57,277 nucleotides of DNA from an uncultured Clostridia bacterium (GCA_944380825.1 CALWIX010000106.1:1-57277), one strand, 5' to 3'. Positions 6,076 to 32,032 are shown, counted from the stretch's first letter. The notes: generated from the letters alone by a model not told the origin. Numbers and translations: made by a program.

Positions 6076-6109
6076 CTCTTCCAGTTTTATTCCTATGGGA
6101 TTGGAAGAG
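6076..6109 (-). terminator. hairpin terminator after the DapA-family gene
   Basis: CTCTTCCA ... TGGAAGAG 8-bp stem followed on the minus strand by GTGTTTTG. Confidence 0.5.
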
Positions 6110-6125
6110 TCGCATGGAACGATTT

Positions 6126-7022: not shown

Positions 7023-7153
7023 TCTTTACCGCCTTTCCTCCCCGCATAGCAGGGAATTAAACCATCTTGGAGACTTATTCCTTAATTTTTTATAAATAGA
7101 AAAAAGAAAGGGCAGCCCTCATGGACCGCCCCCTCTTTAAAAGCCGTTATAAT

Positions 7154-8041: not shown

Positions 8042-8283
8042 TGTGAATTCATCCTTTCTAAACATCAGCCGTCTGATCCGACATCCTTTTTAGCGGATCA
8101 CGGCATAATTTCTTGTCTGCTATCATTATAGCCGCCATTTACACACTTTTCAAGAGGACAATGGAGTATTTTTGCATTTTTTAGAAAATTTTTTTCAAGA
8201 TCTTCCCTTGCTATTAAAAACAAGTTGTCTGACAAATATCAAACAAAAAGTGTTTCGATTTGAAGCAACTTTTTCAAAAACGA

Positions 8284-8313
8284 TTGACGAATAAAACCAT
8301 TTTCGTTTACAAT
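8284..8313 (+). promoter_or_regulatory. candidate promoter of the AKR-ferredoxin gene
   Basis: TTGACG, an 18-nt spacer, then TACAAT. The spacer is flanked by AAACGA ... TCGTTT. Confidence 0.45.
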
Positions 8314-8409
8314 TAAGAATAAGGCTTATTGGCAAATTATAGTTTTATTTTTGCCTATCTTTAAGATTACGGCGCAAATCTCTACTTTTTGAAAAAGGGG
8401 ACTTTCAGT

Positions 8410-17000: not shown

Positions 17001-17189
17001 GGAAAACGGTTTGCCGTCAAAATTTTCCGGCACGCCGGTGTATACTTCGTCATACCCATTTTTCCCTTCCATTGCTTCCAGCGGTGCGATGGTCTGCATA
17101 TCAAAATAACGCCGCTGCGCAAGTTCTTGTACGCGCCGCTCCATTTTTTCCAAAGTAAAAAACAAAACAACTCCTCCTTTATTCCGCAT
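14067..17189 (-). CDS. GH38 alpha-mannosidase
   Basis: HCVGQTHIDVAWLWRYKNTREK and RNQFHDVIPGSSI GH38 signatures. About 1040 aa with no signal peptide. True start may be TTG 17165 (6 nt after AAAGGAGGAG) or ATG 17144 rather than ATG 17189. Confidence 0.9.
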   Translation of the reverse strand: MRNKGGVVLFFTLEKMERRVQELAQRRYFDMQTIAPLEAMEGKNGYDEVYTGVPENFDGKPFSLGDRFCGKDKFLWIRKTVQIPPSRPGCEVTGLFDFGKTGGGLNSGFESMLYIDGHPYQAVDTYHHDVLLEKLAGRRVTMMLLLWTGRGGQEYETVFEHRFTRADLGYLHKDTDELYYLCRAALETAQILPEDDSERDVLLDAMERCMLFLNWDEDKFYDSVGQALAYLKKILAENKKESSVTIHCVGQTHIDVAWLWRYKNTREKVQRSCATALQLMDEFDQFIFLLTQPQVYKYLKEDCPELYERVKEKVKAGQWEPEGGMWLEADCNISSGESLTRQFLHGIRFFQQEFGKTCEYLWLPDVFGYSWALPQILKQCGIKTFMTTKISWNQFNTMPNDVFFWRGIDGSEVLSYFMEVPPEDRPITDRFSTYNGMMAPRTALGSWKKFRNRDISKDVLIGYGYGDGGGGATRDMVKLELAMQKIPGLPNILPDTAGNFFRKLHQSVEKTDHYIQTWDGELYLEYHRGTYTTQAKNKRWNRKMEYKLAETEWLASVGSFSGGTYPQALLHKAWETVLRNQFHDVIPGSSIQEVYEDSRKQYSQANDALDAGRQEIFRTMAQPIGTEYTVFHFGSFARKDAVVLPVTADGTFYAADGAVLDSQKTADGMFVSVPMGAASMAAVQFVPGESFRSPSSFSYSEADRRLETPHYVLCWNESGRMCSIWDKDNAREVLCGEGNRLEIFEDKPMNYDAWDIDIYYTQKMETASLTAAPQVVEDGALRMVLRFAFAYNLSTFTQDVIVYRDSRRIDFVTKADWHESHRLLKAAFAVDVRSTHATYDIQYGHVERPTHWNTSWDWARFEVVGHKWADLSESNYGVSLLNDCKYGYSIKDNVMKLSLLRSPKRPDPTADMGMHTFTYALLPHAGNVIQGDTIEESVSLNLPLQYFEGRTDGCGKAMVRLSSPALYLDAVKQAEDGDGFVVRVHECRGGTHSAELTSDYGIKRFAACNLLEEVEGELQESSAISFSIKPFEIRSWRVWF

Positions 17190-17200
17190 TTCTTTTCCTC

Positions 17201-17229
17201 ATTATAGCAATCCATTCTACTGGATACAA
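17201..17229 (-). promoter_or_regulatory. sigma-A-type promoter for the GH38 gene
   Basis: Minus strand reads TTGTAT (17229-17224), a 17-nt spacer, then TGcTATAAT (-10 at 17206-17201). The spacer contains the inverted repeat ATCCA-N6-TGGAT (17210-17225). Confidence 0.55.
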
Positions 17230-17288
17230 TGCATTTTTTCTGAAAAATTTCTGGATCTTTTTATGCAGAAAAACCGGCTTGTATAAAT

Positions 17289-17331
17289 AAAAATCCTCCG
17301 GAGCAAGAAAGGAATGCTCCGGAGGATTTTT
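17289..17331 (-). terminator. strong intrinsic terminator after FAD paralogue A, upstream of GH38
   Basis: 16-nt arms AAAAATCCTCCGGAGC / GCTCCGGAGGATTTTT with an 11-nt loop. T-run continues (ATTTAT) on the minus strand. Confidence 0.8.
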
Positions 17332-17346
17332 ATAAAAAGATGGAGA

Positions 17347-18726
17347 TCACGGATGTTCTTTATCAAACCAGACGTTTGCAAACACGAGCGCATCATGCAG
17401 AACACTGTACGACAAATCGCGCACATTGGAAATTCCCTGCTTTGCACACAGAGCCGCCGCCGTTCCGGCAGCCTGACCCATCGCCATACAGGATACCGTG
17501 TTGCGGGTAGACATATGGGCATTGTGATCGGAGGTGATCATCATGCCGATAGCAAACAGGTTCTCCAAATTCTTTACTTGAATCGCGCGGTACGGTACAC
17601 CATAAGTACCACCGTTTTTCACTTGGAAACGCGGCGCATAATCGTGGAATCCATAAGAATAGATCTCGTCATCAAAATGGGTAGCGTTCAAAATCTCTTC
17701 ATTAGAGATATCATATTCGCACTCGATGCAGCGCGCACGGCGGATCGTAATAGTAGGAGCGGTACGAGAAATAAAGGCATTCTCCGCACCCGGAATCGTC
17801 TTACGCAGCAGTTCCAAAGCTTCGCGCTGACGGCGGCGCAGTTCAAACTCCGCATCGGCTAAGGCATCGCGATCAGTCGGTGTTTTGGGCATCATGTAGT
17901 TGAGTTTGATAAACATGAAATAGTTATCATGCAGCGTTGTTGTAACGGTATGCATTCCCAGTTCACGAGTCTTTTGACCCAGTTCTTCGGTAATGTTCTC
18001 CCAATCGCCGTCTACACGGATGATCTGATTGCTGCGTCCGTCGCGAGGCCCGCGGGCATATTCCTTCAGAGCACCGTTGTCACGCAGGAACGAATAGTAT
18101 TTATCAATATCAATTCCTCCTACGCCCATGCTGTTAGCAACAGCGTAATCGTTTGGCTCCGTATAGGAAGCTCCCGCCCTTGCAGACAGATCGCCAAAAC
18201 CAGTGGCATCGATAAACACCTTACCCATCACAGCTTCGCAGCCCTGATGACTCTCTGTAATAACGCCCTGAATTCTGCCGCCGGAGACAAGTGCATCGAC
18301 CGCCATGGTATTAAGCATCACATGCACGCCTGCTTCGCGGAGCATTTCGAGCGCTACAAACTTATAAACCTCTACATCTACGCACAGCGTATCGGAATCA
18401 TATTCATAGCGCAGAACGGTATCGTTATGTCCCGAAGCACCGCGCTGCTGTGTCAGCCGCTGGATCATTTCTTCGGGAATACCGCGTACTACCATTCTTT
18501 TTTCTACCCCTGGAAAAGCCTTCCAGAGATTAAAGAAACTGTGCAGGCCGCAACCACCCTCGGCAGCAATGCCTCCCACATATCCCTTGCTCTCAATCAG
18601 GGCTGTTTTGGCACCGGCACGCGCCGCCGCTATTGCTGCAAACACACCGCCTGTACCACCGCCACAGATTACGACGTCATAGTGTCTCGCTGTGATTTTG
18701 CTTTCCGGACGGATAACATACTCCAT
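17347..18726 (-). CDS. FAD-dependent oxidoreductase (FAD_oxidored-type), paralogue A
   Basis: YDVVICGGGTGGVFAAIAAARAGAKTALIE dinucleotide fold. C-terminal AHMSTRNTVSCMAMGQAAGTAAALCAK. RBS GGGAGGAA upstream. Confidence 0.85.
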   Translation of the reverse strand: MEYVIRPESKITARHYDVVICGGGTGGVFAAIAAARAGAKTALIESKGYVGGIAAEGGCGLHSFFNLWKAFPGVEKRMVVRGIPEEMIQRLTQQRGASGHNDTVLRYEYDSDTLCVDVEVYKFVALEMLREAGVHVMLNTMAVDALVSGGRIQGVITESHQGCEAVMGKVFIDATGFGDLSARAGASYTEPNDYAVANSMGVGGIDIDKYYSFLRDNGALKEYARGPRDGRSNQIIRVDGDWENITEELGQKTRELGMHTVTTTLHDNYFMFIKLNYMMPKTPTDRDALADAEFELRRRQREALELLRKTIPGAENAFISRTAPTITIRRARCIECEYDISNEEILNATHFDDEIYSYGFHDYAPRFQVKNGGTYGVPYRAIQVKNLENLFAIGMMITSDHNAHMSTRNTVSCMAMGQAAGTAAALCAKQGISNVRDLSYSVLHDALVFANVWFDKEHP

Positions 18727-19004
18727 AATACAAATTCCTCCCGTTTTATAGGAGCCGGCGTCCGGCTAGAGCTCTTCCCTAGCCGGAACGAGAGCCCCGC
18801 CGCCTTTAAAAATGGCGGTCAGTCCATCTAAAGCGTTCAGCTCCCCTCCGGCACACTGGGAGCGTCTCCCGCATAAAACCGGATGGGAGTGGGAACCTTA
18901 CACCGTTCCCTGACAATAGCAGGGCTGGAACCTCTGCTGGATACGGAACAAGATTCCGTATTAAAGGGTGCAGGATGACAAAACCTTTCTACCGCAGCCC
19001 TTTA
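18727..19004 (-). other. 278-nt GC-rich, hairpin-dense intercistronic spacer (candidate structured RNA element)
   Basis: At least six stem-loops are readable on the minus strand, for example TACGGAA-TCTTG-TTCCGTA, GGGAAC-GGTGTAAG-GTTCCC, CCGCC-ATTTTTAAA-GGCGG and CCGGCTAG-N9-CTAGCCGG. No RBS-preceded ORF. Other spacers in the window are AT-rich. Confidence 0.35.
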
Positions 19005-20378
19005 TTAACCAAGAAATACGTTCTGAGAACGGAGCGTTTCACGCAGCTGCTGGATGTCTACATCACGCGGAAGGACACCAGCTTTTGCACACAACGCTGC
19101 CGCTGTGCCGACCGCCTGCCCCTGGGCCATACAAGAGGCGGTATTACGGGTAGACATATGGGCACTCCAATCGCTGGTAATTAGACGTCCCGCTACCAGA
19201 AGGCCCTCCACGTCTTTTGGTAAGAAGGCACGATATGGAATGCCATAATACTTTGCATCTTTAATCATGATACGCGGTGCGCAATCATGGAAACCATAAA
19301 GCATCACTTCATCATCAAAGCGCTGCGCATTGACGATCTCATCGAGCGTCATATCGTGCTCGCACTCCACCACACGGGTGTAGCGCACACCTACTGCCAC
19401 CGGAGTCCAGCTGACATATGCTTTCTCAAATCCGGGCAGGTATTTTACCATTCTATCAGCAAGAGCCATCGCGCGGTGACGCAGAATAATCTCTGCCTGC
19501 GAAAGCGCTTCGGTACTCGTTGCATCTACACAGGAAAGGTTGACGCCATTGATGTATGTATAGCTGTTTTCATGCAGGGAAGCGCCGAGCGGTCCCCACA
19601 TCTGATTCTCTTCCATGAACTCCTTAAATTCGGGCATCTTCTTAAGCTCAAATCCAAGGCGGATTACATGGTCGGTTTCACTGCCTTTATCTCCACGGAT
19701 AATCTGGTTGACCATATCATGTTCTTCCAAAAACTTCACCAGACGCTCCATGTCCACATTTGTCATGCCAAACGGATAACCAACAGAGGTAGTATCATGC
19801 TTCTTGATGAAATGAGCGCCCGAAAACGCTGCCACATCGGCGTCACCCGTCGTATCAATAACAGCCTTCGCGCTGATGGCCTCGCGGCCCGACTTACCCT
19901 CGATGATCAGCCCTTTGACAGTGTTTCCTTCTTTCATGACGCCAACAACCATTGTATGCAGTAAAATCTTGACGCCCGCTTCCTCCATCATCTCAAAGAT
20001 AACTTCTTTGAAAGCCTCCCAATCGATAAGGGTGATGACGGAATCATAGTTGCCGCCCTTTTCCTGTTCCAAATGTCCGGGAGAAGCACCGCGTTCTTGC
20101 ATACGGTGCACGATCTCATCCGGAATACCACGGATAACCTGCACTTTTTCCGCACCCGGGAACGCTTTATACAAATTGAAGAAACTGTGCAGCGGTCCCG
20201 CGCCGTTGATCATAGAGCCGCCAAGGAACCCATAACGATCAATCAAAATCGTTTTTGCACCGTTGCGTGCAGCAGCCAAAGCCGCCACAACACCGGCCGT
20301 GCCTCCTCCGGCGACAGCGACGTCGTATTCATAATTGATAGGAGTCTGAAGAGATTCGGTAATAAACTGAGTGCTCAT
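19005..20378 (-). CDS. FAD-dependent oxidoreductase (FAD_oxidored-type), paralogue B
   Basis: YDVAVAGGGTAGVVAALAAARNGAKTILID. C-terminal AHMSTRNTASCMAQGQAVGTAAALCAK. Alignable end to end with paralogue A. Ends in tandem TAA TAA stops. Confidence 0.85.
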   Translation of the reverse strand: MSTQFITESLQTPINYEYDVAVAGGGTAGVVAALAAARNGAKTILIDRYGFLGGSMINGAGPLHSFFNLYKAFPGAEKVQVIRGIPDEIVHRMQERGASPGHLEQEKGGNYDSVITLIDWEAFKEVIFEMMEEAGVKILLHTMVVGVMKEGNTVKGLIIEGKSGREAISAKAVIDTTGDADVAAFSGAHFIKKHDTTSVGYPFGMTNVDMERLVKFLEEHDMVNQIIRGDKGSETDHVIRLGFELKKMPEFKEFMEENQMWGPLGASLHENSYTYINGVNLSCVDATSTEALSQAEIILRHRAMALADRMVKYLPGFEKAYVSWTPVAVGVRYTRVVECEHDMTLDEIVNAQRFDDEVMLYGFHDCAPRIMIKDAKYYGIPYRAFLPKDVEGLLVAGRLITSDWSAHMSTRNTASCMAQGQAVGTAAALCAKAGVLPRDVDIQQLRETLRSQNVFLG

Positions 20379-20396
20379 GAGACGATTTCCTTTCTT

Positions 20397-22958
20397 TTAC
20401 TTTACAGTGATAACATGATAGGGATACGGATAAACCGAATGGTAAACACCCGGGAACATTCCACATGTACCAGACTTATCCTGTACCGTTACATACACCA
20501 TCAGATCCCAATCGGAAGTGATGTACTCTGCCGGAACAGATGCGCAGTAAGCCGTTCCATTCCATTGCATCGGAATCGTATGGAATAACCCTTCTGTTTG
20601 ATTCACATGACGGTAATGAAGTACCGGCACCGTTTCGGATTCTTGAATTCCCTGAAGGTACGCTGTAACGACAAGCTCTTTTCCCGCTTGTACGCAATCG
20701 GGAAGATCCGCTGTAACGACAGAAGCCTCCTCGGGCTCATATTCTGCATAAAGTTTTTCTGCACGAGTGACACCGTTTTCTGACAGCAATGCGCTCAGTG
20801 TCTTCTCGTCCGCCTCCAACTCACAGGTACGATCCGCCCATGTGCCGCGTCTTGTCTTCGATCCGGCAGAACTGAAATCGAGATCTTTATAATACTTTTC
20901 AAGGCCAAGGGACGACAGAGCGTTCCACTGTCCCACCGCTTCGTCCAGAAGCAGTGCGCAGTCGGAGAGCCATTTTCCATCCTTCGTGAGATCCCATTTG
21001 GCCAAAGCAAGTGCTGCACGCATTTTATAGGCGTGGTAGCGAGCCATATAGACTAGCATCGTCAAATCCGTGCACATCGCAAGATATTCCGGAGACTTCG
21101 GATCGGAGACGTCCGCAGCGCTGTTCTTCAGGCCGTTTTCCGTCTCATCCGCGAGATCTAAAAGCCAGCGCGAGGTTTGCAGCGGAGAATATTTGCCGGC
21201 AAATTCCTGCTTTGCGCCGTCTTTGGCGTACTCATCAATTCCATAGAACAGCCCCTGATCGCTCGGTTCAGTAGAACCATAAGTAACACGCTTGAAAAGA
21301 TCATAGTCTTGTGGTTTATCGAGGTTATTTTCAAAGAAAAGCGCCCATCCGGTACTGAGCTCCGTCCAATAACGCAGGGACGGATGCACAGGCATATGGA
21401 TGGTTGTAATCAGCGGAATGATTCGGCTAGCCACAGAGAGCGTCTTCTCTAAAGCAGGACCAGCTTTGCCAAAACGGGCGGCAAACTCGCTCTGCCAAAT
21501 CTCCGGGTCTGCCTTGCGGTTGTATCCGAGTCTACCGAACACTATGTACCACATCCAGAAGCGTTCATCTTCCCATTTTCCACTGCGCAGGGCCGGATCT
21601 GCAAAAGTATCCCAGTGTTCCTTATGAGAAAGCTCATGGCCATATTTCAAAGAAAGCGGCGCATTTACTTCGTAGCCTGTGGAATCAGAAAGTCCACAGC
21701 TTTCTCCGAAACGGCGTGCATAATCCGCATCGCCCCACAAGAACAGGTTTGTAGAACCGTAATTCCACAAACGGTAAAATACATCAAAATATTTCGGTTT
21801 GCGCAGCATATCCGCATAGGAATAACGGCGCGAATGGTTGAAGTTATCGAGCTGGGCAATTTCTTCGCTGCGCATAACGGAAAGGTGATACGGAAGGGCA
21901 GCGTGTTCGCACCAATATTTGGTGGGAACCTCTACCTGCAGACCCTTTGAGAACGCATGCACAATCATCGAATCGGTTAAGCCCTTGGCTCGTAGATCCA
22001 AAATAAGAGGACGACCCGTTTCCTGTGCGACCTCGGCCACGGCATCAGTGCAGGAATTCCAGAAATCTTCTGCGGAAACCTGTGTTCCTACGCCGGATTC
22101 ATGGTTGACACGGAACTGTACGATATCGATCTCCGGAACAGCTTTCACCAATGCCTTTAATCCTGCATGACAATAGTCACTCAGCTCTTTTTCGCCATCC
22201 GGCAATCCCTCTACAAGGCGATCCTGCGCGGTTGTCCATGGGCGCTGCTGCCACGTTGCAAACGTAAAGAGAATACCACGATCGTGGCACATTTGCCCGA
22301 TGTGGCGCAAAGCGGCGAGGTTCTCGGCACACTGCTGCGGTGTAAGCTTAGAAGACTTTACCTGCTCATATCCCTCTACTGTAAGGAAGAACGGATACGG
22401 CGGGGCCATATAGGCCGTGTCGAAGCCTACAATCAGACAGAAACGGTTAAAGCGGTTATACGCCAGTCTTTCCAGATAATACTCCCAAAATTCTTCCGAA
22501 AGAAACCACTCGTTATCAAGGTGGCCTAGAAGATACCGATCCATGCAGCGGACACGGTTATCGGGCTTTTCCGTATAGCTCTCTAGATTTTGTAAAGCAC
22601 TCAGACCATCTCTGCGTACTTTTCTAGCTACATCCAGAAGCAGATACATTAAACCTGTATCGTCCGAACCGGCCAATACTAACACTTTTCCCTTCTGCGT
22701 TTCACACCACTGGCAGAAAATGCTCTCGGGACCTGTATGATAGTCAACATCATTATCTTCTAATAAAACCTGTATTCTACGATCCCCGCTTGTGCCTACT
22801 GCAACTGCAAAGGGATCCATATTTTCCAGTGCTGCCCAATGGGGTGTTTCACAAAACTTACCCCCACAGGCATTCACTGCCTTTTCCAACTCCTTTTTGC
22901 CATACAGCGCGCTGTTTTTTACATCAAACCAGCTTACTGCAAACGTTACATTTTCCAT
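20397..22958 (-). CDS. large uncharacterised cytoplasmic protein, putative carbohydrate-active enzyme (853 aa)
   Basis: Uninterrupted 853-codon frame 18 nt upstream of FAD paralogue B. No signal peptide or TM segment. Trp/Tyr-rich. No catalytic signature of a family I can name. Confidence 0.8.
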   Translation of the reverse strand: MENVTFAVSWFDVKNSALYGKKELEKAVNACGGKFCETPHWAALENMDPFAVAVGTSGDRRIQVLLEDNDVDYHTGPESIFCQWCETQKGKVLVLAGSDDTGLMYLLLDVARKVRRDGLSALQNLESYTEKPDNRVRCMDRYLLGHLDNEWFLSEEFWEYYLERLAYNRFNRFCLIVGFDTAYMAPPYPFFLTVEGYEQVKSSKLTPQQCAENLAALRHIGQMCHDRGILFTFATWQQRPWTTAQDRLVEGLPDGEKELSDYCHAGLKALVKAVPEIDIVQFRVNHESGVGTQVSAEDFWNSCTDAVAEVAQETGRPLILDLRAKGLTDSMIVHAFSKGLQVEVPTKYWCEHAALPYHLSVMRSEEIAQLDNFNHSRRYSYADMLRKPKYFDVFYRLWNYGSTNLFLWGDADYARRFGESCGLSDSTGYEVNAPLSLKYGHELSHKEHWDTFADPALRSGKWEDERFWMWYIVFGRLGYNRKADPEIWQSEFAARFGKAGPALEKTLSVASRIIPLITTIHMPVHPSLRYWTELSTGWALFFENNLDKPQDYDLFKRVTYGSTEPSDQGLFYGIDEYAKDGAKQEFAGKYSPLQTSRWLLDLADETENGLKNSAADVSDPKSPEYLAMCTDLTMLVYMARYHAYKMRAALALAKWDLTKDGKWLSDCALLLDEAVGQWNALSSLGLEKYYKDLDFSSAGSKTRRGTWADRTCELEADEKTLSALLSENGVTRAEKLYAEYEPEEASVVTADLPDCVQAGKELVVTAYLQGIQESETVPVLHYRHVNQTEGLFHTIPMQWNGTAYCASVPAEYITSDWDLMVYVTVQDKSGTCGMFPGVYHSVYPYPYHVITVK

Positions 22959-23122
22959 TCACAATTCCTCCCACAAAGCGGCAAAGCAGATACTTTTTCT
23001 AAAAAGCATCCAGATGCTCTGCCATTAGAACGCGTAGGCTTTCCAATAAACCTATGCAATTACACTCTTGTCACTAGGCGGCCTGCGGACCGCAGCTGCG
23101 CATTACACGCAGGCCAGCCTTA

Positions 23123-23968
23123 TTACTCTTTCATGCCGGAGGTAGCAATACCTGCAACAAACTGCTTCTGGAACGCAAGGAACACGATAAAAATCGGGAT
23201 CAAAGAACATACGGAAGCTGCCATGATGGCGCCATAGCTGGTCGAGTTTTCATCTTTAAAGTAGTTCAGTCCGAGAGGAATAGTCGCCAGTTCCATGCTA
23301 CGCAAATATACCAGAGGACCTTCGTACTCGTTCCACGATCCAACAAACTGGAAGATAATCAGTGCACTGAACGCCGAAATAGAAAGCGGCACCACAATGC
23401 GAGAGAAGATAACAAAATGGTTTGCACCATCAATTTTTGCGGATTCACTAAGTTCTTCCGGAATGGTCTCAAAGAACTGTTTGAGCATAAAGGTACCAAA
23501 CGCCGTAAACATACCGGGAAGAATCAGAGCCCAGTGTGTGTTGTAAAGACCCATCTGAGAGAACAACACAAAGCGCGGAATCAGCATCATCTGGTTTGGA
23601 AAGACAAGTGTAGAAAGGTATGTCAAAAAGATGATATTAGAACCTCTAAACTTAATTTTTGCAAACGCATAGCCTGCCAGCGCACTTGTGAATACTTCAC
23701 CTAGCACCGAAATAACCGTAATCTTTATGGAATTGAGGAAAAAGGTAGTAAACGGAATGTCAGAATTCCAAACACGGTCGTAATTCGCAAAGGTGATTTC
23801 CCGCGGAATCCATTCGATAGGGAAATTAAAGATTTGGTTATCCGGCTTGAAGGAAGCGGAAAGCATCCACGCAAAGGGCATGAGCATAATAATGGAAACG
23901 ATCGCCATGATAATGGTGGCGACAATTTTAAAAATAAGCTTTCTTCGTGAATATCCCATCCTGCGCAC
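23123..23968 (-). CDS. carbohydrate ABC transporter permease (MalG-like)
   Basis: Six hydrophobic segments and EAA loop LSESAKIDGANHFVIFSRIVVPLS. Confidence 0.9.
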   Translation of the reverse strand: MRRMGYSRRKLIFKIVATIIMAIVSIIMLMPFAWMLSASFKPDNQIFNFPIEWIPREITFANYDRVWNSDIPFTTFFLNSIKITVISVLGEVFTSALAGYAFAKIKFRGSNIIFLTYLSTLVFPNQMMLIPRFVLFSQMGLYNTHWALILPGMFTAFGTFMLKQFFETIPEELSESAKIDGANHFVIFSRIVVPLSISAFSALIIFQFVGSWNEYEGPLVYLRSMELATIPLGLNYFKDENSTSYGAIMAASVCSLIPIFIVFLAFQKQFVAGIATSGMKE

Positions 23969-23971
23969 CTC

Positions 23972-24880
23972 CTACTTATTTTTCCGCTCGTAAATCATCC
24001 GGGCTGCCGCAAAGATAAAGACCAAAACAAACAGCACCCAAGACATAGCGCTCGCATAACCTATATCGCTGTGCTTAAACGCCGTGGTGTATATGTAGTA
24101 CACCAGAACCGAGGAAGAGTTGCCCGGCCCGCCGGAGGTCATAACCTGTACAGGCGTGAATACCTGGAAGGAGCGGATAATTGAAATCATTGTCAAGAAG
24201 AACATCGTGCTGGAAAGAGACGGGATTGTAATGTAAAAGAATTTTTGCACGGCGTTGGCGCCATCGATTTCAGCAGATTCATACAGAGATTTAGAAATGC
24301 CCTGCAAACCAGCGAGCACGATAATAATATTATAACCAATGCTCTGCCATACGCCGACGATGATAATGGAAAGCAGCGATGTATCGCTGCCGTTGAGCCA
24401 ACGGGGCGGATTTTCGATGCCAATGCTCTGGAGAACCTGATTGATAGGACCATAGCTCGGCAGGAAGAGAACCATCCACACAATAGAAACTGCCACCATG
24501 GAGGATACGTTCGGCAGATAGTACGCTAACCGCAGGATGCCCTTTCCATAAACGTTATCATTGAGGATAACCGCAAAAACAAGAGCGATAAAAATAGAAA
24601 CAGGCACCAGAACGATTGCATAAATAATTGTATTAATTAGAGAATCTACGAAAATAGGATCCTTGGGGAGAGCTAGATAGTTGTCTATTCCGGCAAACTT
24701 AATATTCTCAACACCGGAAATAAAGTTCCAATCCGCAAAACTCAGAATGAGCGCGAGAATAAGAGGAATCAGCTTGAACGCTACGTACCCAATGAAGTTT
24801 AGGGAAATGAACGCATAGCCCGCCAAATTTTCACGCCTCTGAAGCGCGGAAGTTTTCCTTTTTTTCGTTACAGCGGCCAC
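23972..24880 (-). CDS. carbohydrate ABC transporter permease (MalF-like)
   Basis: EAA loop LYESAEIDGANAVQKFFYITIPSLS. GTG start at 24880. 3-nt gap to the next permease. Confidence 0.9.
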   Translation of the reverse strand: MAAVTKKRKTSALQRRENLAGYAFISLNFIGYVAFKLIPLILALILSFADWNFISGVENIKFAGIDNYLALPKDPIFVDSLINTIIYAIVLVPVSIFIALVFAVILNDNVYGKGILRLAYYLPNVSSMVAVSIVWMVLFLPSYGPINQVLQSIGIENPPRWLNGSDTSLLSIIIVGVWQSIGYNIIIVLAGLQGISKSLYESAEIDGANAVQKFFYITIPSLSSTMFFLTMISIIRSFQVFTPVQVMTSGGPGNSSSVLVYYIYTTAFKHSDIGYASAMSWVLFVLVFIFAAARMIYERKNK

Positions 24881-24908
24881 AAAATCACATCCAATCCATA
24901 AATAAGAC

Positions 24909-24943
24909 GGCCCGCCAAATAGTGCAACCGTATTCGGCGGGCC
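24909..24943 (-). terminator. intra-operon hairpin/partial terminator after the binding-protein gene
   Basis: Minus strand reads GGCCCGCCGAATA-N9-TATTTGGCGGGCC followed by GTCTTATTTAT. Confidence 0.5.
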
Positions 24944-24991
24944 TTAAACCTTTAACTTATTTCTTATTCAGAAACACACTGACAAATCGGC

Positions 24992-26437
24992 TTAGCCTGC
25001 CATGTCTTCCTGAATGTACTGATCGCCCTTCGTCTTAAGATCTGCAAGAGCTTCGTCTACACTCATTTCGCCATTGAACACGAGAGCCATATCAGCCTGG
25101 ATCAGATCGTTGATTTTTACCTGACCTTCCTTATGGGTATTATCCTTGGTAATGAGGGTGCGCGGCTGCTCCATAACAGCGATCGCATCGTCCGCATTGA
25201 GTCCCGGATGACCATCAAAGATAATTTCGTTCATCGCATGAGTAGATTCTTCATCCTCAAACTGAACGCCGGGGTGCATCGCCTTCGGGCCAGCAAAGTA
25301 TTCCGGATGCTCGATGCAGATGAACTTCAGCAGTGCCCAAGAAGCATCGGGGTTCGGAGCGTTGGCCGGGATACTAGCAGTAGAAGTATAGGTGATAGAG
25401 CTGTTCTCTGTTGCGCCAACAGGACGCGGCAGGTTGGCCATGCCAATATTGGTGCCTTCCGGAACTTCACCGTAGCTCTCGTTGAGATACAGGCAAGCAT
25501 AAACCGGCGCTACAAACATCGCATACTTGTTGTTGTACAGACCGATCATACCGTTCGTGTCGTTGTTGTACTTCAGAGTGGTGTACTCAGAAATCGGAAC
25601 GACGGACTGGTCAACCATAGCGAGATCATAGAAGAACTGCAGACTCTCCTTATACTCGGGAGCGTCAAAGCGAGTAGCTGTAAAATCGGGGGTATAGTAC
25701 GAAAATGCACCCAACTTCTGCTGTGCAATCAGCTGCCAGTACTGATCGCCGCCGCCGCCTTCGCTCGGTCCGCCGTAGTCAAGCATCGCACCGTAAATCT
25801 TGTTCGCGCCTTCACCAGAGGTCATCTGCTTCGCGATATCACGGAAATCATCCCAAGTCCAATCATCTGCCGGATAATCAACGCCAGCCTCGTCAAACAT
25901 ATTCTTGTTGTACCAAACCATGTTGATGTTGGTGCAGTACGGAACGGCATAGTAATCGCCGTCAAAGTTATATGCCTGCTCCATCGAATCACTGAAGAGT
26001 GTAGCATAGTCCATACCTTCAGCATCCAGATACTGTTTGAGGCCCAGATAGGTACCGCTGTCAGCACGCGTACGAACGTCAATAGCGCTCGCTTGTGTCA
26101 TAACATCAATCTGCTCGCCGGAAGCAAGAGCCGTGTTGATCGTCATGGTAGCTGCGTCATTGAGCTTCTGATATACCAGATTGTACTGACCCTCATACTG
26201 CTCATTAAATGCATCCACTAATTCGACAACGTTATCGGGGTTTGTCCAAGCATAGAAATACACATTGTACTCTTCGCCAGATTCATTACCCGTTGCGGAA
26301 GAACCTGCATCACTGGTAGAACTTCCACCATCAGAGCTTGCGCCGGAAGACGTTTGGCCACTGCTGCATCCAGTCGCGGCTGCGGATACCATTAAAGCCG
26401 CCATCAGGACTGCTGCAATTTTCCTGAACTTTTTCAT
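24992..26437 (-). CDS. ABC transporter extracellular sugar-binding lipoprotein
   Basis: Signal peptide plus lipobox MKKFRKIAAVLMAALMVSAAATGCSS, followed by a Ser/Gly/Asp-rich linker. 481 aa. RBS GGGAGG. Confidence 0.9.
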   Translation of the reverse strand: MKKFRKIAAVLMAALMVSAAATGCSSGQTSSGASSDGGSSTSDAGSSATGNESGEEYNVYFYAWTNPDNVVELVDAFNEQYEGQYNLVYQKLNDAATMTINTALASGEQIDVMTQASAIDVRTRADSGTYLGLKQYLDAEGMDYATLFSDSMEQAYNFDGDYYAVPYCTNINMVWYNKNMFDEAGVDYPADDWTWDDFRDIAKQMTSGEGANKIYGAMLDYGGPSEGGGGDQYWQLIAQQKLGAFSYYTPDFTATRFDAPEYKESLQFFYDLAMVDQSVVPISEYTTLKYNNDTNGMIGLYNNKYAMFVAPVYACLYLNESYGEVPEGTNIGMANLPRPVGATENSSITYTSTASIPANAPNPDASWALLKFICIEHPEYFAGPKAMHPGVQFEDEESTHAMNEIIFDGHPGLNADDAIAVMEQPRTLITKDNTHKEGQVKINDLIQADMALVFNGEMSVDEALADLKTKGDQYIQEDMAG

Positions 26438-26755
26438 GTAAGAAACCTCCCTTAGTAAAAATATAAATACTTTTTTTGAAACGGCTGTTTGTTTCTCCAG
26501 AAAAACTAATCAGCCTTTTCGACCATCATTATTCACGCTTTTTACTTAAAAAACGTATTTCGCGGACAAACAACAAACCCTAAACCGACCTTCAAAGACT
26601 GTCTGCCTAACAACCATACGTCCAAGCGTTTTTAAAACCTTTTTCATGCGCCGGCGCACGCCTGCCGCAAGAAATATCTATACGGTATAACTCAAAACTC
26701 CCCAAAGTAAGCAGACATCCTATCACGTCTGCCGTGTGCAGCCTGAAACTATTTC

Positions 26756-28423
26756 TCAGTGCTCCACAACTTTATCAATCGAGTTACCCATCGAACAGTC
26801 AGCCTGTTCCTGTACCACGACATCAATGATATACGGTTTCAAAGATGCCTGTGCACGTTTCATGGCCGGGATAAGATCCTCCGGCTTGAACACACGCTCA
26901 CCAGCACAGCCAAGGCCCTCTGCCACTTTAACATAATCAACAAAGCCATGATCTTCTTTCATCTCTACAGCGTACTCATATCCGTAAGCATACTTCTGAT
27001 TTTGACGGATTAGGCCGAGATATGCGTTGTTGACAATAACCACGATAACCGGACGATTATATTTTGCACAGGTAGCCAGCTCCTGCACATGGAAGGTGAA
27101 ACCGAAGTCACCCATCACAGCAACTGCACGCTTTCCGGGCTGGGCTGTCATAGCGCCAAACGCCGCCGGAATATCGTAACCGAGGGTACCAGCACCGCCG
27201 GACGGCAGATAGTGACGAGGCTTATCAGCCTCCTGAAGCTGACCAGACCAAATTTGCGTAATGCCACAGCCGGTAGTAAACATTGTATCCGAATCAAATG
27301 CCTCATTAATGGCACCAAATACGCGGTGCGGATGAATCGGAATGCAATCCATATCGGTCTTTCTCTTCAGTGCGGGACGCAGCTGTGCGAGTTTTTCAGC
27401 GGTGCCTTCTCTCTTGGCAATGTTCTGTTTCTTAACTTCTTCAATCAAGGCTTTGATGGCAAGACCTGCATCGGAGACGATTCCAAGATCGGCCGGGAAG
27501 ATCTTGTTGATTTCCTTCGGCTCTATATTAATATGTATAAACTTGCGATCGCCGCGATACTCTTTGATAGAACCAGTGTGACGGTCAGTAAAGCGACAGC
27601 CAATACCGAGGACCATATCCGAATCAAGCAGGACACGGTTGCCAAGAGGCTGACCAACCTGAATGCCCGCATGACCAGCGTTAAGCGGATGATTGATCGG
27701 GATGCCTCCCTTAGCCATATAAGTGGTGATGACCGGAATGTTGAGCATCTCGGCAAGTTCTACACACTCTTCACAAGCGTTCGCTTCTACAACGCCGCCA
27801 CCCATGATGATGACCGGATTCTTGGCGCCCTTAAGCATCTCGACAGCCTGCTGAATTTTTTCAACCTCTGGACCTTTCTTTTCGATCGAATATGGCACAT
27901 AAGAATCGGGATCAAATTCGATCTCTGCATTCTGAATATCAAGCGGCAGATCAATAAGAACCGGACCGGGTTTCCCTTCCCGAGCAATACGGAATGCTTC
28001 ATGGAACACTTCTACAATCTGATCCTTATCTCTTACACACCAAGACTTCTTTGTAACAGGTGCTACAATAGTAGCAATATCGATGCATTGGAACGCATCT
28101 TTAAAGAGCTGGCCGGTAACAGCCTGACCGGTGATCGCGATCAGCGGAATAGAATCAACATGAGCAGTGTAAAGACCAGTGGTAAAATTCGTGGCGCCGG
28201 GGCCGGATGTGCACAGAGCCGCTGCCATTTTTCCGCTTGCACGGTAGTACCCTCCCGCTGCATGTACAGCGGCTTCTTCGTGGCGCACCGTATAATGCTT
28301 AATTTTGCTCTGAGCCTTATCCATATACTTGTAAAGCCCATTGATGCTTGCCCCAGGAATTCCGAAAGCATCGGTGATGCCTTCCTTCTCGAGAATCCTG
28401 ACAATAGCTTCACTTACAACCAT
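26756..28423 (-). CDS. thiamine-diphosphate enzyme, glyoxylate-carboligase-like (acetolactate-synthase superfamily)
   Basis: ThDP motif MGDFGFTFHVQELATCAKYNRPVIVVIVNNAYLG. Long colinear matches to E. coli Gcl as remembered (IDLPLDIQNAEIEFDPDSY, SDMVLGIGCRFTDRHTGSIKEY, VNNAYLGLIRQNQ, VKVAEGLGCAGERVFKPEDL). Confidence 0.88.
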   Translation of the reverse strand: MVVSEAIVRILEKEGITDAFGIPGASINGLYKYMDKAQSKIKHYTVRHEEAAVHAAGGYYRASGKMAAALCTSGPGATNFTTGLYTAHVDSIPLIAITGQAVTGQLFKDAFQCIDIATIVAPVTKKSWCVRDKDQIVEVFHEAFRIAREGKPGPVLIDLPLDIQNAEIEFDPDSYVPYSIEKKGPEVEKIQQAVEMLKGAKNPVIIMGGGVVEANACEECVELAEMLNIPVITTYMAKGGIPINHPLNAGHAGIQVGQPLGNRVLLDSDMVLGIGCRFTDRHTGSIKEYRGDRKFIHINIEPKEINKIFPADLGIVSDAGLAIKALIEEVKKQNIAKREGTAEKLAQLRPALKRKTDMDCIPIHPHRVFGAINEAFDSDTMFTTGCGITQIWSGQLQEADKPRHYLPSGGAGTLGYDIPAAFGAMTAQPGKRAVAVMGDFGFTFHVQELATCAKYNRPVIVVIVNNAYLGLIRQNQKYAYGYEYAVEMKEDHGFVDYVKVAEGLGCAGERVFKPEDLIPAMKRAQASLKPYIIDVVVQEQADCSMGNSIDKVVEH

Positions 28424-28632
28424 GACTCTCTATACTCCTTTTCTTTTTAATTTTGGGATTCCTAAATTTTATTTTTTGAAATCTCATTTCATCTTGTCAT
28501 AAGCTTATCACATTTTTCACTATAAATCAAGACTTTTTTTAAAAAAAATTATTACTTAAATGATTTACTAAAATATAATTTTTAAATATAAAATTAAATT
28601 TCATTTTAAATAAGAGAATAATAAAATATTTG

Positions 28633-28675
28633 TTGATTTTGAATATTGAAATCAATTGCTATTAACTAGTATAAT
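28633..28675 (+). promoter_or_regulatory. candidate iclR promoter overlapped by an inverted repeat (possible IclR operator)
   Basis: TTGATTT-N9-AAATCAA (28633-28655) overlaps -35 TTGAAA (28646-28651). An 18-nt spacer leads to -10 TATAAT (28670-28675). Confidence 0.4.
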
Positions 28676-28815
28676 AAATATACACATCGTTTTTTATTAA
28701 TGATTCGTTGCACAGTTTTGTATAGCAAAAGGTTTGTAAAAATTGAATAATGCTGTACTTGTCAATATTTTATCCGGCTAAATAGAACAAATTTATTACT
28801 AGGAGGTCTTACACT

Positions 28816-29622
28816 ATGAGCCCCAGACCCTACTCATCGAATCAATCTTCCGCCAAAATGCTTGACATTATTGAATTTTTAGCCGATCACAATAATGAAC
28901 CTATGCGTTTAAAAGATATTGCTGACGGTTTATCTATGAGTCCCAGCACGGTGCTTCGCTTTTTAAGCTCTCTCATGGAACGCGATTATCTATGGCAGGA
29001 TCCCAACTCTTTGCAGTATTCGCTTACCCTTAAGCTATGTTCTGTTGCAAACAAAGTCAGTTCTAACCTTCAATTATACGATCTTGCTCTGCCAATTATG
29101 AAACAGATCTGTGCACGGTTTGGGGAATCCGTCTGCCTTGCAGAGGAACAAGATATGGAGGCCGTATACATAGGTGTCGTTCGTACCCCGGATCAGATGC
29201 TTCAAACCATGCAGCGCATCGGCAACCGTGCTCCCTTGCATTCTACAGGCGTAGGTAAATTGCTGCTTCTCAATTATAGCGAGGCAAAAATCGATCGCTT
29301 AATCTCTACAAAAGGCTTACCTGCCTTAACTAAAAATACAATTACCACAAAAACTGGTCTGATAGAAAAAATCGCTCAAATCCGCCGCCAAGGCTATGCT
29401 TACGATGATGAGGAATGCGAAATCGGCGCACGCTGTATTGCTGTTCCTGTATACAACTATACGGGAAAGGTCATCGCTGGATTAAGTGTAACGGGTCCCG
29501 TTTCACGTATGTCCTACCAAAAAATTGACGAATATAAAGATTTTCTTTTAAATCAAGGGGATAAACTCTCCCATCTTCTGGGGTATTTAGGAAATAAAGG
29601 ACACTTTACCGAATTACATTAA
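28816..29622 (+). CDS. IclR-family transcriptional regulator
   Basis: N-terminal wHTH MRLKDIADGLSMSPSTVLRFLSSLMERDYL and C-terminal effector domain (GVGKLLL, YAYDDEECEIGARCIAVPV). GGAGG RBS. Confidence 0.88.
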   Translation: MSPRPYSSNQSSAKMLDIIEFLADHNNEPMRLKDIADGLSMSPSTVLRFLSSLMERDYLWQDPNSLQYSLTLKLCSVANKVSSNLQLYDLALPIMKQICARFGESVCLAEEQDMEAVYIGVVRTPDQMLQTMQRIGNRAPLHSTGVGKLLLLNYSEAKIDRLISTKGLPALTKNTITTKTGLIEKIAQIRRQGYAYDDEECEIGARCIAVPVYNYTGKVIAGLSVTGPVSRMSYQKIDEYKDFLLNQGDKLSHLLGYLGNKGHFTELH

Positions 29623-29657
29623 AGTTAAAACACAAAACAGAAGAGGAGTGAACGGCG

Positions 29658-30929
29658 ATGAAAGTTTCCCTTCCCTACGGGGATGGTTTTTTAAAGGGTG
29701 ATTTGCCCGATTCCCGTATTGCAGGTGTTGTACATAGTCATTTGGATGAGTACCATCCGGAAATTCCGCAGCAACAGTTGGTCGAACAGGCACTTCGCAA
29801 CCCTATTGGCTCCCCTGCCCTACGGGATCTCGCTAAGGGAGCAAAAAATGTTGTGATCATCGCAAGCGATCACACACGTCCGGTGCCAAGTAAATTTTTG
29901 ATTCCGCCAATGCTGCGGGAGATCCGTACTGGGAATCCTCACGCAAAGATTACTATTTTGATTGCAACCGGGTGCCACCGCGGAACAACCCCCGAGGAGC
30001 TGCGCAAAAAGTTCGGAAATGAAATATACGAGCAGGAACATATTGTGGTTCATGATTGCGACGACTCCGAAAACCTTGTTTCTCTCGGCATTTTGCCCAG
30101 CGGGGGCGAGCTTATCATCAACCGCCTTGCGGCCGAAGCCGATCTTCTCGTTTCGGAAGGTTTTATCGAACCTCACTTTTTTGCCGGATTTTCGGGAGGA
30201 CGAAAAAGCATTCTGCCTGGAATTGCCGCACGAAAAACGGTTTATGCCAATCACTGCTCTAAATTTATTGCCGATAAACACGCTTGTTATGGAAGCTTAA
30301 AAGAAAACCCCATCCATCGCGACATGATTTTTGCTGCCCGTAAGGCAAATCTTCGATTTATTTTGAATGTAGTAATCAACTCGAACCATGAGATTATCGG
30401 CGCTTTTGCTGGGGACTGTGACGAGGCCCATCTGGCGGGAACCCAGTTTTTATCCTCTTTGTGCAGTGCTTCTGCGATTCCCTCCGATATCGTTATCACA
30501 AGCAACAACGGCTATCCGCTGGATCAAAATATTTATCAAGCCGTTAAAAGTATGGCTACAGCCTATATGACTTGCCGCGAAAATGGTGTGATTATTACAG
30601 CTGCTCGCTGTGAAGACGGCCACGGCGGCCAAGGATTTTTCGATACATTTCGAAACGATCCATCCTCCAAAGCAATCCTCGATCGTATTTTATGCGTCCC
30701 CCAAGATGCCACCGAAGCAGATCAATGGCAGTCCCAAATTTTTGCCCAGATTCTCTGCCGCAATACTGTTATTCTTATCAGTGAGGCAGATGACTCTGTT
30801 GTTCGAGCACTTCATATGCTTCCTGCACACTCTCTGGAAGAAGCAGTGCAGATTGCAGATTCCGTTCTTGGCAATTCTTCTGGCATGATTACTGTCGTTC
30901 CAGAGGGGATGTCCTGCCTTTTTCAGTAG
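29658..30929 (+). CDS. LarA-family nickel-pincer-dependent 2-hydroxyacid racemase/epimerase homologue
   Basis: SDHTRP, ATGCHRG, EPHFFAGFSGGRKSILPG and YANH place Arg74, His107, His173, Lys183 and His199. This is exactly one residue off L. plantarum LarA Arg75/His108/His174/Lys184/His200. Confidence 0.85.
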   Translation: MKVSLPYGDGFLKGDLPDSRIAGVVHSHLDEYHPEIPQQQLVEQALRNPIGSPALRDLAKGAKNVVIIASDHTRPVPSKFLIPPMLREIRTGNPHAKITILIATGCHRGTTPEELRKKFGNEIYEQEHIVVHDCDDSENLVSLGILPSGGELIINRLAAEADLLVSEGFIEPHFFAGFSGGRKSILPGIAARKTVYANHCSKFIADKHACYGSLKENPIHRDMIFAARKANLRFILNVVINSNHEIIGAFAGDCDEAHLAGTQFLSSLCSASAIPSDIVITSNNGYPLDQNIYQAVKSMATAYMTCRENGVIITAARCEDGHGGQGFFDTFRNDPSSKAILDRILCVPQDATEADQWQSQIFAQILCRNTVILISEADDSVVRALHMLPAHSLEEAVQIADSVLGNSSGMITVVPEGMSCLFQ

Positions 30930-31056
30930 AAACTCTTTCCTGTCACATCCTTGAGCGGAGAGGTGCGTGCTATCTAGACTAGACTAAATGCAGCGCTTCA
31001 CTTTCCAGATAAGGGCAGATTTTACAAAGAATTCATAATCATTAAAGGATATTAGA

Positions 31057-31085
31057 TTGTAAATTCGTGAATATTGTGCTATAAT
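31057..31085 (+). promoter_or_regulatory. sigma-A-type promoter of the membrane-protein/acpS/nnr operon
   Basis: TTGTAA, a 17-nt spacer, then TGcTATAAT. Confidence 0.6.
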
Positions 31086-31167
31086 CAACAAAGATTCCAG
31101 CACAACTTTCCTGAGAAATTCTCCTCAAGATTACATTTTTATTGAGAGGATATTGGAGGCTCTTTAC

Positions 31168-31680
31168 ATGGACGTTTTTGTGGAACAAATTATTAAAAAG
31201 AAACCCAGTGGGATTGACTTTCTGATTTATTTAGGAATTATTTTAGCAGGATTCATTCTTATTGTGGCTGCAATGCTCTTTCTACCTTCGCTGGCTTTGA
31301 TGGTTCTTGTGGGCGTTATTTTCGGCGTTTACTACGTCATCACGATGCGCGACCTTGAATATGAATACAGCTTTACCAACGGCGATTTAACCGTAGATAA
31401 AATTATCCATCGCCGCAGCCGTAAACGCTTGATTTCTTTCGATGTACATAACGTGGAGGAAATGGGAAAATACGATCCCCAGAAACATGCTGCTCGCGAT
31501 TACAATAAACGGCTGATCGTTTCTCAATATCCCGATGGACGTGACGCATGGTATATGACGTTCCGCCATTCCAAATTTGGAAACACGCTTTTCGTTTTTA
31601 CTCCGGACGAGAAGGTTCTCAATTCTGTAAAGCCTTTTCTTCCCAGACAGGTGGCGGTCGATGCTTTCCGTGGGAATTGA
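31168..31680 (+). CDS. hypothetical membrane protein (two TM helices plus soluble domain)
   Basis: ATG 31168 lies 8 nt after GGAGG. Hydrophobic pair FLIYLGIILAGFILIVAAMLFLPSLALMVLVGVIFGVYYV. Overlaps the acpS start. Confidence 0.65.
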   Translation: MDVFVEQIIKKKPSGIDFLIYLGIILAGFILIVAAMLFLPSLALMVLVGVIFGVYYVITMRDLEYEYSFTNGDLTVDKIIHRRSRKRLISFDVHNVEEMGKYDPQKHAARDYNKRLIVSQYPDGRDAWYMTFRHSKFGNTLFVFTPDEKVLNSVKPFLPRQVAVDAFRGN

Positions 31681-32032
31681 TTTAGTCGAAATTAAAAGAA
31701 TAAAAAACTCTATCCGGAATCCGCGCTTTTGCAGCAGGGTGCTCGGCAAGTCCGAGTATGCCCAGCTTGCATCGCGCGGATTTCCTGTACAGAGCATTGC
31801 GGCAAGTTTCTGCGCAAAAGAGGCTTTTTCGAAGGCACTAGGAACTGGGATCCGTGGATTTAAGCTTTATGAGGTAGAACTTTTACGTGAGGAAAATGGG
31901 AAGCCTTATCTCCATTTAACTGGCAACGCTGCACAGATCGCCTCACAACAGAACAAACTATTTTCCGTGAGTGTAACTCATACCAAAGAATATGCTGCCG
32001 CAGTTGTAATAGGAGAGGAGAAAAGTTCATGA
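31661..32032 (+). CDS. acpS: holo-[acyl-carrier-protein] synthase
   Basis: MLSVGIDLVEIKRI start. 123 aa. FCAKEAFSKA motif. Confidence 0.88.
   Translation: MLSVGIDLVEIKRIKNSIRNPRFCSRVLGKSEYAQLASRGFPVQSIAASFCAKEAFSKALGTGIRGFKLYEVELLREENGKPYLHLTGNAAQIASQQNKLFSVSVTHTKEYAAAVVIGEEKSS

Follow-up and report, generated by a model that had tools for sequence, protein, structure and literature searches.

Gene Content of the Locus

Three adjacent genes were analyzed on a 57,277-nucleotide stretch of DNA from an uncultured Clostridia bacterium (GCA_944380825.1 CALWIX010000106.1:1-57277), hereafter called the window, which is contig C106 of a 2.14-Mb genome that is 89% complete. They encode a thiamine diphosphate (ThDP)-dependent enzyme resembling glyoxylate carboligase (Gcl), a regulator of the IclR family, and LarA, a 2-hydroxyacid racemase that requires nickel-pincer nucleotide (NPN) as its cofactor. 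Gene identities were assigned from open reading frames, Pfam domains, and NCBIfam models with curated cut-offs, and gene neighbors were clustered across 80 fetched loci bearing a gene of the same ThDP family (individual loci are denoted by L numbers). Judged by locus L012, in which the ThDP enzyme shares 94% identity with that of the window, the closest named relative is Candidatus Gallacutalibacter pullicola. All three open reading frames were present at the positions listed in Table 1. A first-pass annotation of this DNA had described the same regulator type, a Gcl-like enzyme, and a LarA homologue, and the reading frames together with the domain and model scores bear it out on each. A 453-aa open reading frame antisense to the ThDP gene (27089–28450, +) lacks independent support and most likely represents an artefact of the mirror frame.

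Table 1. Features of the locus and of related genes in the window, with positions counted from the first nucleotide of the window.
Feature	Coordinates	Strand	Size	Remarks
GarR-type tartronate semialdehyde reductase	7154–8065	−		Passes NF008592 and TIGR01505
GH38 alpha-mannosidase family protein	14067–17189	−		May mark where the same strand-wise cluster ends
Two PF12831 FAD-dependent oxidoreductases	17347–20378	−		Pfam; in L137, LarA lies directly after them
Protein resembling glycoside hydrolase	20397–22958	−	853 aa	No Pfam match; 64% identical to L137 orthologue
Two ABC permeases	23123–24880	−		BPD_transp_1; L137 orthologues 74–77% identical
CUT1-type ABC solute-binding protein	24992–26437	−		SBP_bac_1; downstream of ThDP gene
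Glu-type Gcl-like ThDP enzyme	26756–28423	−	555 aa	TPP_enzyme_N, M, and C domains
Shared divergent control region	28424–28815		392 nt	AT-rich; long blocks conserved in the window, L012, L093, and L095
Candidate IclR operator, perfect palindrome TGAAATCTCATTTCA	28477–28491			Begins 54 nt upstream of the ThDP start codon
Second palindrome copy	28589–28603			One mismatch; same intergenic region
Promoter-like site for IclR-LarA (TTGAAA, 18 nt, TATAAT)	28646–28675	+		11/12 consensus matches; block conserved in four lineages
IclR-family regulator	28816–29622	+	268 aa	HTH_IclR and IclR_C domains
LarA, NPN-dependent 2-hydroxyacid racemase	29658–30929	+	423 aa	Lactate-racemase group, Gln358 type; Lar_N and LarA_C domains

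A Glu-Type Relative of Glyoxylate Carboligase

The top NCBIfam match of the ThDP enzyme was glyoxylate carboligase, but its score was under both equivalog cut-offs (EC 4.1.1.47; 646.3 vs 791 for NF008431 and 548.1 vs 711.2 for TIGR01504). Four further members of its family, some with hyi and garR genes after them, gave 611–652 bits, compared with 1209–1283 bits for E. coli Gcl. The family scores, all lying under the cut-off, indicate that the family is a coherent sister group outside the curated Gcl definition. The enzyme is 45% identical to E. coli Gcl and approximately 40 residues shorter, and its Glu49 aligns with Val51 of that protein, which Kaplun et al. are said to have described in 2008 as replacing the canonical cofactor-activating Glu of ThDP enzymes. 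Glu at this position was invariant in the family (71/71 members), which is called Glu-type here. When structures were searched, Gcl matched with approximately 505 bits and the best acetolactate synthase with approximately 315 bits, so that Gcl is, as judged by these matches, by far the closest characterized relative. A 558-aa protein designated 'glyoxylate carboligase' (PDB 7ct6) ranked sixth among the structure matches, after five E. coli variants. No characterized Glu-type Gcl turned up in a literature search.

Members of the Glu-type family share 58–94% identity across Bacillota, Synergistota, Spirochaetota, Acidobacteriota, and Chloroflexota. In the order to which the window belongs, the family is rare (3/401 sampled genomes), and co-occurrence there is uninformative. 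Such patchy occurrence suggests horizontal spread. The G+C content is 0.41–0.44 at positions 28001–32000 around IclR-LarA and approximately 0.48–0.50 on both sides, which, taken with the patchy distribution of the family, agrees with horizontal acquisition. The locus probably entered the genome in this manner.

The neighbors of the Glu-type genes point toward a Gcl or near-Gcl reaction. An IclR gene adjoins the ThDP gene in 36–38 of the 80 loci, oxidoreductases of the PF12831 family that use flavin adenine dinucleotide (FAD) adjoin it in 18, and a gene for a xylose-isomerase-like TIM-barrel protein and another for a D-2-hydroxyacid dehydrogenase lie directly after it in approximately 20. At five loci (L038–40, L049, and L063), the ThDP gene is followed by a true Hyi, 49–55% identical to the E. 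coli protein, and by a GarR-type reductase. As Hyi and GarR are the expected consumers of tartronate semialdehyde, this order provides the best argument for the reaction. In the window itself, neither hyi nor a tartronate semialdehyde reductase gene lies beside the ThDP gene. The genome has its TIM-barrel and dehydrogenase genes on another contig (C50:585–2541), where they are 66–81% and 68–77% identical, respectively, to the pairs of the other loci, and it has a single GarK-type glycerate kinase on contig C177. A complete route from glyoxylate to phosphoglycerate can be drawn from these predicted functions, with its genes scattered over contigs. Nothing specific on the PF12831 flavoproteins or on the TIM-barrel protein was found in the literature, PDB, or ESM Atlas.

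The first-pass annotation had drawn a parallel with E. coli, in which AllR controls gcl-hyi-glxR. For the family this parallel stands, given the Hyi-GarR, TIM-barrel-dehydrogenase, and IclR neighbors; the enzyme of the window is not a curated Gcl. The same annotation placed LarA where hyi and glxR would be, which is not the gene order found, as ABC (ATP-binding cassette) transporter genes follow the ThDP gene and LarA follows the IclR gene.

The IclR Regulator and the Shared Control Region

The top NCBIfam matches of the IclR protein were BhcR, KdgR, PcaR, IclR, and AllR, all under their cut-offs (104.9 vs 406 for AllR, NF007548; 177.3 vs 350 for BhcR, NF045644). By these models, it is a generic member of the IclR family and neither AllR nor BhcR. 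It is 28% identical to AllR, of which Cys217 and Ser234 are kept and Ser236 is changed to Thr. These three are pocket residues of AllR; the motifs containing them occur family-wide and carry little weight.

The palindrome found in the control region has the form TGAAAT-N3-ATTTCA, and its perfect version occurs as a single copy in the 2.14-Mb genome. Sites with at most one mismatch number nine genome-wide, two of which lie in this region. The palindrome is kept in L012, L093, and L095, and the motif occurs again upstream of ThDP genes in unrelated lineages, among them L015, L021, L069, L077, and L090. It was counted 14 times in 12 kb of ThDP-upstream gaps vs 9 times in 91 kb of other intergenic gaps, although the loci are interrelated and unequal in AT content, so that the nominal P value is too favorable. 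The palindrome also resembles the GAAAT/ATTTC-type half-sites found in IclR-family operators. It is a good candidate for the operator of the IclR protein. The gap between the IclR and LarA genes is 35 nt long and contains a good ribosome-binding site and no terminator, indicating that the two are probably encoded on one transcript.

LarA and Its Likely Substrate

LarA scored 601.9 bits against the Ni_dep_LarA model (NF033504, cut-off 460), and its closest solved structure is the lactate racemase of Thermoanaerobacterium. Its His107, His173, Lys183, and His199 align with His108, His174, Lys184, and His200 of L. plantarum LarA, and its DHTRP and IYQAVK motifs align with Arg75 and with Tyr294/Gln295/Lys298 of that enzyme. 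As far as such alignment can tell, the catalytic His pair, the NPN-tethering Lys, the Ni-binding His, and the substrate/cofactor residues are all kept. The protein is the sole LarA of the genome. The larE, larB, and larC genes, all above their cut-offs, lie together on contig C124 of the same genome (G000; approximately 6098–8466; loci L001, L002, and L005) and would serve this single LarA, which is encoded on another contig behind the IclR gene.

Residue Gln358, in the motif DQWQSQI, occupies the position of T359 of LarA1. The residue that corresponds to T359 varies among enzymes of the lactate-racemase group, and LarAH43, which has Gln there (Q359), exhibits kcat/KM values of approximately 1.1 × 10^5 for glycerate and 0.8 × 10^5 for lactate (PMC11770544). 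The physiological role of glycerate racemization by LarA homologues was left open by the authors of this 2024 study (PMC11770544). All lactate-racemase-group LarAs found beside ThDP genes have Gln at this position. On the malate/tartrate racemase models, the window LarA reached 360 bits vs the 500-bit cut-off. Of the glycerate- and tartrate-type substrates proposed for it in the first-pass annotation, tartrate hence finds no support, while glycerate is plausible in view of Gln358, shared with LarAH43, and of a cluster in L137 that joins LarA with a MOFRL glycerate kinase and CdaR. The term 'glycerate racemase' was not found in a literature search.

Clostridiales bacterium VE202-15 (G479) encodes two LarA paralogues of the lactate-racemase group (L141, 8677–9996; L142, 8625–9995), one carrying Gln at the specificity position (DQWQSQIF) and the other Cys (EQWCAQIY); the pair fits the published description of LarAH43 and LarAH42. 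This strain is presumably close to E. asparagiformis. A likely LarAH43 orthologue, from an Enterocloster-like genome, shares 54.5% identity with the window LarA.

Association of LarA with the ThDP System

The first-pass annotation had proposed a check on whether the three-gene arrangement recurs in other genomes, and it does. The order in which the ThDP gene is divergent from IclR-LarA is kept in L012, L093, and L095, whose LarAs are 84, 80, and 74% identical to that of the window. The outer flank past LarA differs among the window, L093, and L095. An order kept in three further lineages with a differing outer flank is more than chance would leave.

LarA was found with the ThDP-family system in three distinct gene orders, of which that of the window is one. 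The second is the Anaerocolumna type (L137 and L138), which reads IclR opposite TIM-barrel protein, D-2-hydroxyacid dehydrogenase, CdaR, MOFRL glycerate kinase, solute-binding protein, permease, permease, 856-aa protein, FAD oxidoreductase, FAD oxidoreductase, LarA, and Gfo. Apart from CdaR, the kinase, and Gfo, these genes are orthologues (50–79% identical) of genes in the genome of the window. Of all the evidence, it is the glycerate kinase and the sugar-diacid (CdaR-type) regulator of this order that point most strongly to a hub role of glycerate. In Anaerocolumna sedimenticola, IclR-ThDP stands opposite the TIM-barrel and dehydrogenase genes and transporter genes, and a truncated LarA lies approximately 17 kb from the ThDP gene. 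That LarA (G472, C1:346758–347510) is a 252-aa frame covering model positions 171–421 and appears to be a truncated copy that closes off the same supercluster. The third order, ThDP-FeADH-LarA, occurs in spirochaetes (L037, L078, and L085). The Firmicute and spirochaete copies fall into separate, well-supported clades of the LarA tree, indicating that LarA was recruited at least twice. In Anaerotruncus, LarA adjoins CdaR and sugar-acid genes.

A lactate-racemase-group LarA above the cut-off was present in 44 of the 80 ThDP-bearing genomes. Any LarA homologue is carried by 16% of bacterial species (PMC11770544). As the taxa compared are not matched, the difference between 44/80 and 16% is no more than suggestive of a link between LarA and the ThDP enzyme.

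These associations bear on the simplest alternative, in which LarA is an ordinary lactate racemase acting on the L-lactate of the cell itself and stands behind the IclR gene by historical accident, with no connection to the ThDP enzyme. The protein passes the lactate-racemase equivalog and has a lactate racemase as its closest solved structure, LarAH43-type enzymes racemize lactate well, the genome has two L-lactate dehydrogenase genes, and Gln-type LarAs occur in many unrelated contexts, all of which agree with this alternative. It does not, however, account for the recruitment of LarA to the same system in three architectures and from two LarA clades, or for its predicted co-transcription with a regulator whose control region is shared with the ThDP gene. 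The L137 cluster, with LarA beside glycerate kinase and CdaR, and the failure to find a lactate-oxidizing enzyme of the LctD or GlcD type in the genome also tell against it, and we regard it as rather unlikely.

The Wider Locus Downstream of the ThDP Gene

The ThDP gene heads a run of genes on the same strand that encode an ABC transporter, an 853-aa hydrolase-like protein, two flavoproteins, and a GH38 protein (Table 1). The order of ThDP gene, solute-binding protein, permease, and permease is kept in L013, L093, and L095. The 853-aa protein gave a weak match to alpha-galacturonidase, and its Atlas neighbors include the cluster 'alpha glucuronidase N-terminal domain'; it is kept at 60–80% identity beside the ABC transporter in L013, L071, L095, and L137. 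L012 also has a GH38 gene, located after the ThDP gene and an FAD oxidoreductase. Since the block of ABC transporter, 853-aa protein, and flavoproteins accompanies the ThDP gene or LarA in L013, L071, L095, and L137 as well, the trio is one end of a locus spanning approximately 14067–30929, and not a self-contained module.

This wider locus allows a second alternative, in which the importer, the 853-aa protein, and the two PF12831 flavoproteins take up and process a glycoside, the ThDP enzyme acts on another 2-oxo acid derived from it (e.g., hydroxypyruvate), and LarA racemizes the matching 2-hydroxy acid. It is favored by the strand-wise run and its core kept in L013, L071, L095, and L137, by a ThDP family that scores under the Gcl cut-offs and keeps the canonical Glu, and by the failure to find a known glyoxylate source in the genome. 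On the other hand, Gcl is by far the closest characterized relative (approximately 500 vs 315 bits), and five loci continue from the ThDP gene into bona fide Hyi and GarR, which consume tartronate semialdehyde. We consider this alternative unlikely.

The Distant garR Gene

The first-pass annotation had linked the trio to a GarR-like reductase 19 kb away. By its models, the reductase is genuine (494.1 vs 397 for NF008592; 437.9 vs 340.75 for TIGR01505), and the protein is 61–66% identical to the reductases that follow ThDP-Hyi in L038–40, L049, and L063. Its coordinates were corrected from 7154–8041, which probably reflected an internal start, to 7154–8065. The functional tie to the trio turned out to be weak, because garR lies past unrelated genes beside a DHDPS-family gene of its own, and no garR-like gene was found in the available parts of L012, L093, and L095. 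The TIM-barrel and D-2-hydroxyacid dehydrogenase pair on C50 would be a closer candidate for partnership with the trio than garR.

The DHDPS-family gene (6126–7022, −) barely reaches the dapA cut-off (208 vs 206) and also matches the 5-dehydro-4-deoxyglucarate dehydratase and KDG-aldolase models, so it may encode a sugar-acid aldolase or dehydratase instead of DapA. Divergent from garR lies a gene for an aldo-keto reductase with a 4Fe-4S dicluster domain (AKR-Fer4; 8389–9540, +), which shares 53% identity with the AKR-Fer4 gene that immediately precedes LarA in Anaerotruncus (L097).

The reading in which LarA replaces hyi and glxR and works together with garR on glycerate or tartrate stereoisomers, as a variant glyoxylate route, draws on this genuine tartronate semialdehyde reductase, on its likeness to the post-ThDP-Hyi reductases of other phyla, and on the AKR-Fer4 resemblance. 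It is difficult to reconcile with a garR that has its own DHDPS-family neighbor and, as far as the contigs reach, lacks synteny with the trio in L012, L093, and L095. LarA, moreover, scores poorly on the malate/tartrate racemase models, and the genome keeps the usual TIM-barrel and dehydrogenase pair elsewhere. We judge this version highly improbable.

Proposed Pathway and Its Significance

The reading that we prefer, with a probability of roughly 0.5, is that the trio forms the regulatory end of an accessory locus for catabolism, which channels C2/C3 hydroxy and oxo acids into D-glycerate, with LarA serving as a glycerate/lactate racemase. The IclR protein would control, through TGAAAT-N3-ATTTCA as its binding site, the ThDP gene on one side and its IclR-LarA transcript on the other. 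The Glu-type ThDP enzyme would most likely make tartronate semialdehyde from glyoxylate, which could be converted into D-glycerate by the TIM-barrel isomerase and the D-2-hydroxyacid dehydrogenase encoded on C50, or by GarR. D-Glycerate would then be phosphorylated by the GarK-type kinase encoded on C177. LarA, with a nickel-pincer cofactor supplied by the larE-larB-larC products of C124, would convert L-glycerate into D-glycerate for the kinase and may also act as a lactate racemase. It is from the observed gene identities, synteny, conserved palindrome, and active-site residues that we infer all substrates, the regulator's effector, and the sequence of steps in this scheme.

Several observations weigh against the glycerate scheme. 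The ThDP enzyme falls short of both curated Gcl cut-offs and has Glu in place of the Val of Gcl. Isocitrate lyase, a GlcD-type oxidase, and ureidoglycolate lyase were not found in the 89%-complete genome, and this lack of a usual glyoxylate source leaves room for a ThDP enzyme acting on another 2-oxo acid. LarA adjoins the ThDP gene in only approximately 7 of 81 loci, and the likely LarAH43 orthologue adjoins a GntR/FCD regulator and not the ThDP gene of its genome. Gln at the position of Gln358 is common among the nearest relatives of LarA (114/127), which occur in varied contexts; being the common state, it permits a glycerate role and does not prove one. A genome-wide scan for palindrome sites with at most one mismatch revealed none upstream of the gene pair on C50, the glycerate kinase gene on C177, or garR, so that the regulon looks local. 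The known reductases yield D-glycerate, and a racemase is hence not obviously needed. Two L-lactate dehydrogenases are encoded in the genome, so lactate is a real metabolite. Lactate dehydrogenase reduces hydroxypyruvate to L-glycerate; the two enzymes thus keep the plain lactate-racemase explanation alive and, through this side reaction, also offer a rationale for a glycerate racemase.

A bolder form of the glycerate scheme, which we consider less likely than not, sees in the trio the visible end of a hitherto undescribed multi-gene pathway in anaerobes, in which glycerate racemization would be the physiological role of LarA. Its parts would be the ABC importer, the 853-aa protein, the two PF12831 flavoproteins, the Glu-type carboligase, the TIM-barrel isomerase, the D-2-hydroxyacid dehydrogenase, the glycerate kinase, and LarA. 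In a less likely variant, tartronate semialdehyde itself would be the substrate of LarA, which would take the place of hydroxypyruvate isomerase by putting the hydride back on C3.

The locus and its relatives provide a concrete, testable setting for the glycerate racemization reported for LarA enzymes (PMC11770544). If the bolder form is true, in either variant, the glycerate-racemase activity of LarA would gain its first biological role, and the Glu-type enzyme would stand as a sister of Gcl with a distinct function. Some pipelines annotate the Glu-type family as glyoxylate carboligase, though it lacks the famous residue change of Gcl. Should the family prove to be a true carboligase, the reaction can dispense with the Val-for-Glu substitution; should it not, many genome annotations are in error. 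For studies of the regulator, the conserved palindrome is a ready target.

Comparison with Known Systems

The trio co-travels in related gut anaerobes and looks like part of a larger, uncharacterized pathway ending in glycerate. It shares with the AllR/gcl-hyi-glxR system of E. coli an IclR-family regulator beside a Gcl-type ThDP enzyme, and in other family members the next genes likewise encode an isomerase and a reductase for the conversion of tartronate semialdehyde into D-glycerate. In contrast to the E. coli system, the ThDP gene of the window adjoins no isomerase or reductase gene, and LarA and ABC transporter genes are found instead. The resemblance to LarAH43 of Enterocloster asparagiformis, compared here via its publication and the likely orthologue, lies in membership of the lactate-racemase group and in the same Gln within DQWQSQIF (PMC11770544). 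Unlike the window LarA, that orthologue adjoins a GntR/FCD regulator and an alpha/beta-hydrolase, not a carboligase. With the larABCDE system of L. plantarum, the window LarA shares its catalytic and cofactor residues, and larB, larC, and larE are present in its genome. Its gene is set apart from larEBC, however, and is predicted to be co-transcribed with the IclR gene, not placed under LarR, and its neighbors point to glycerate instead of lactate.

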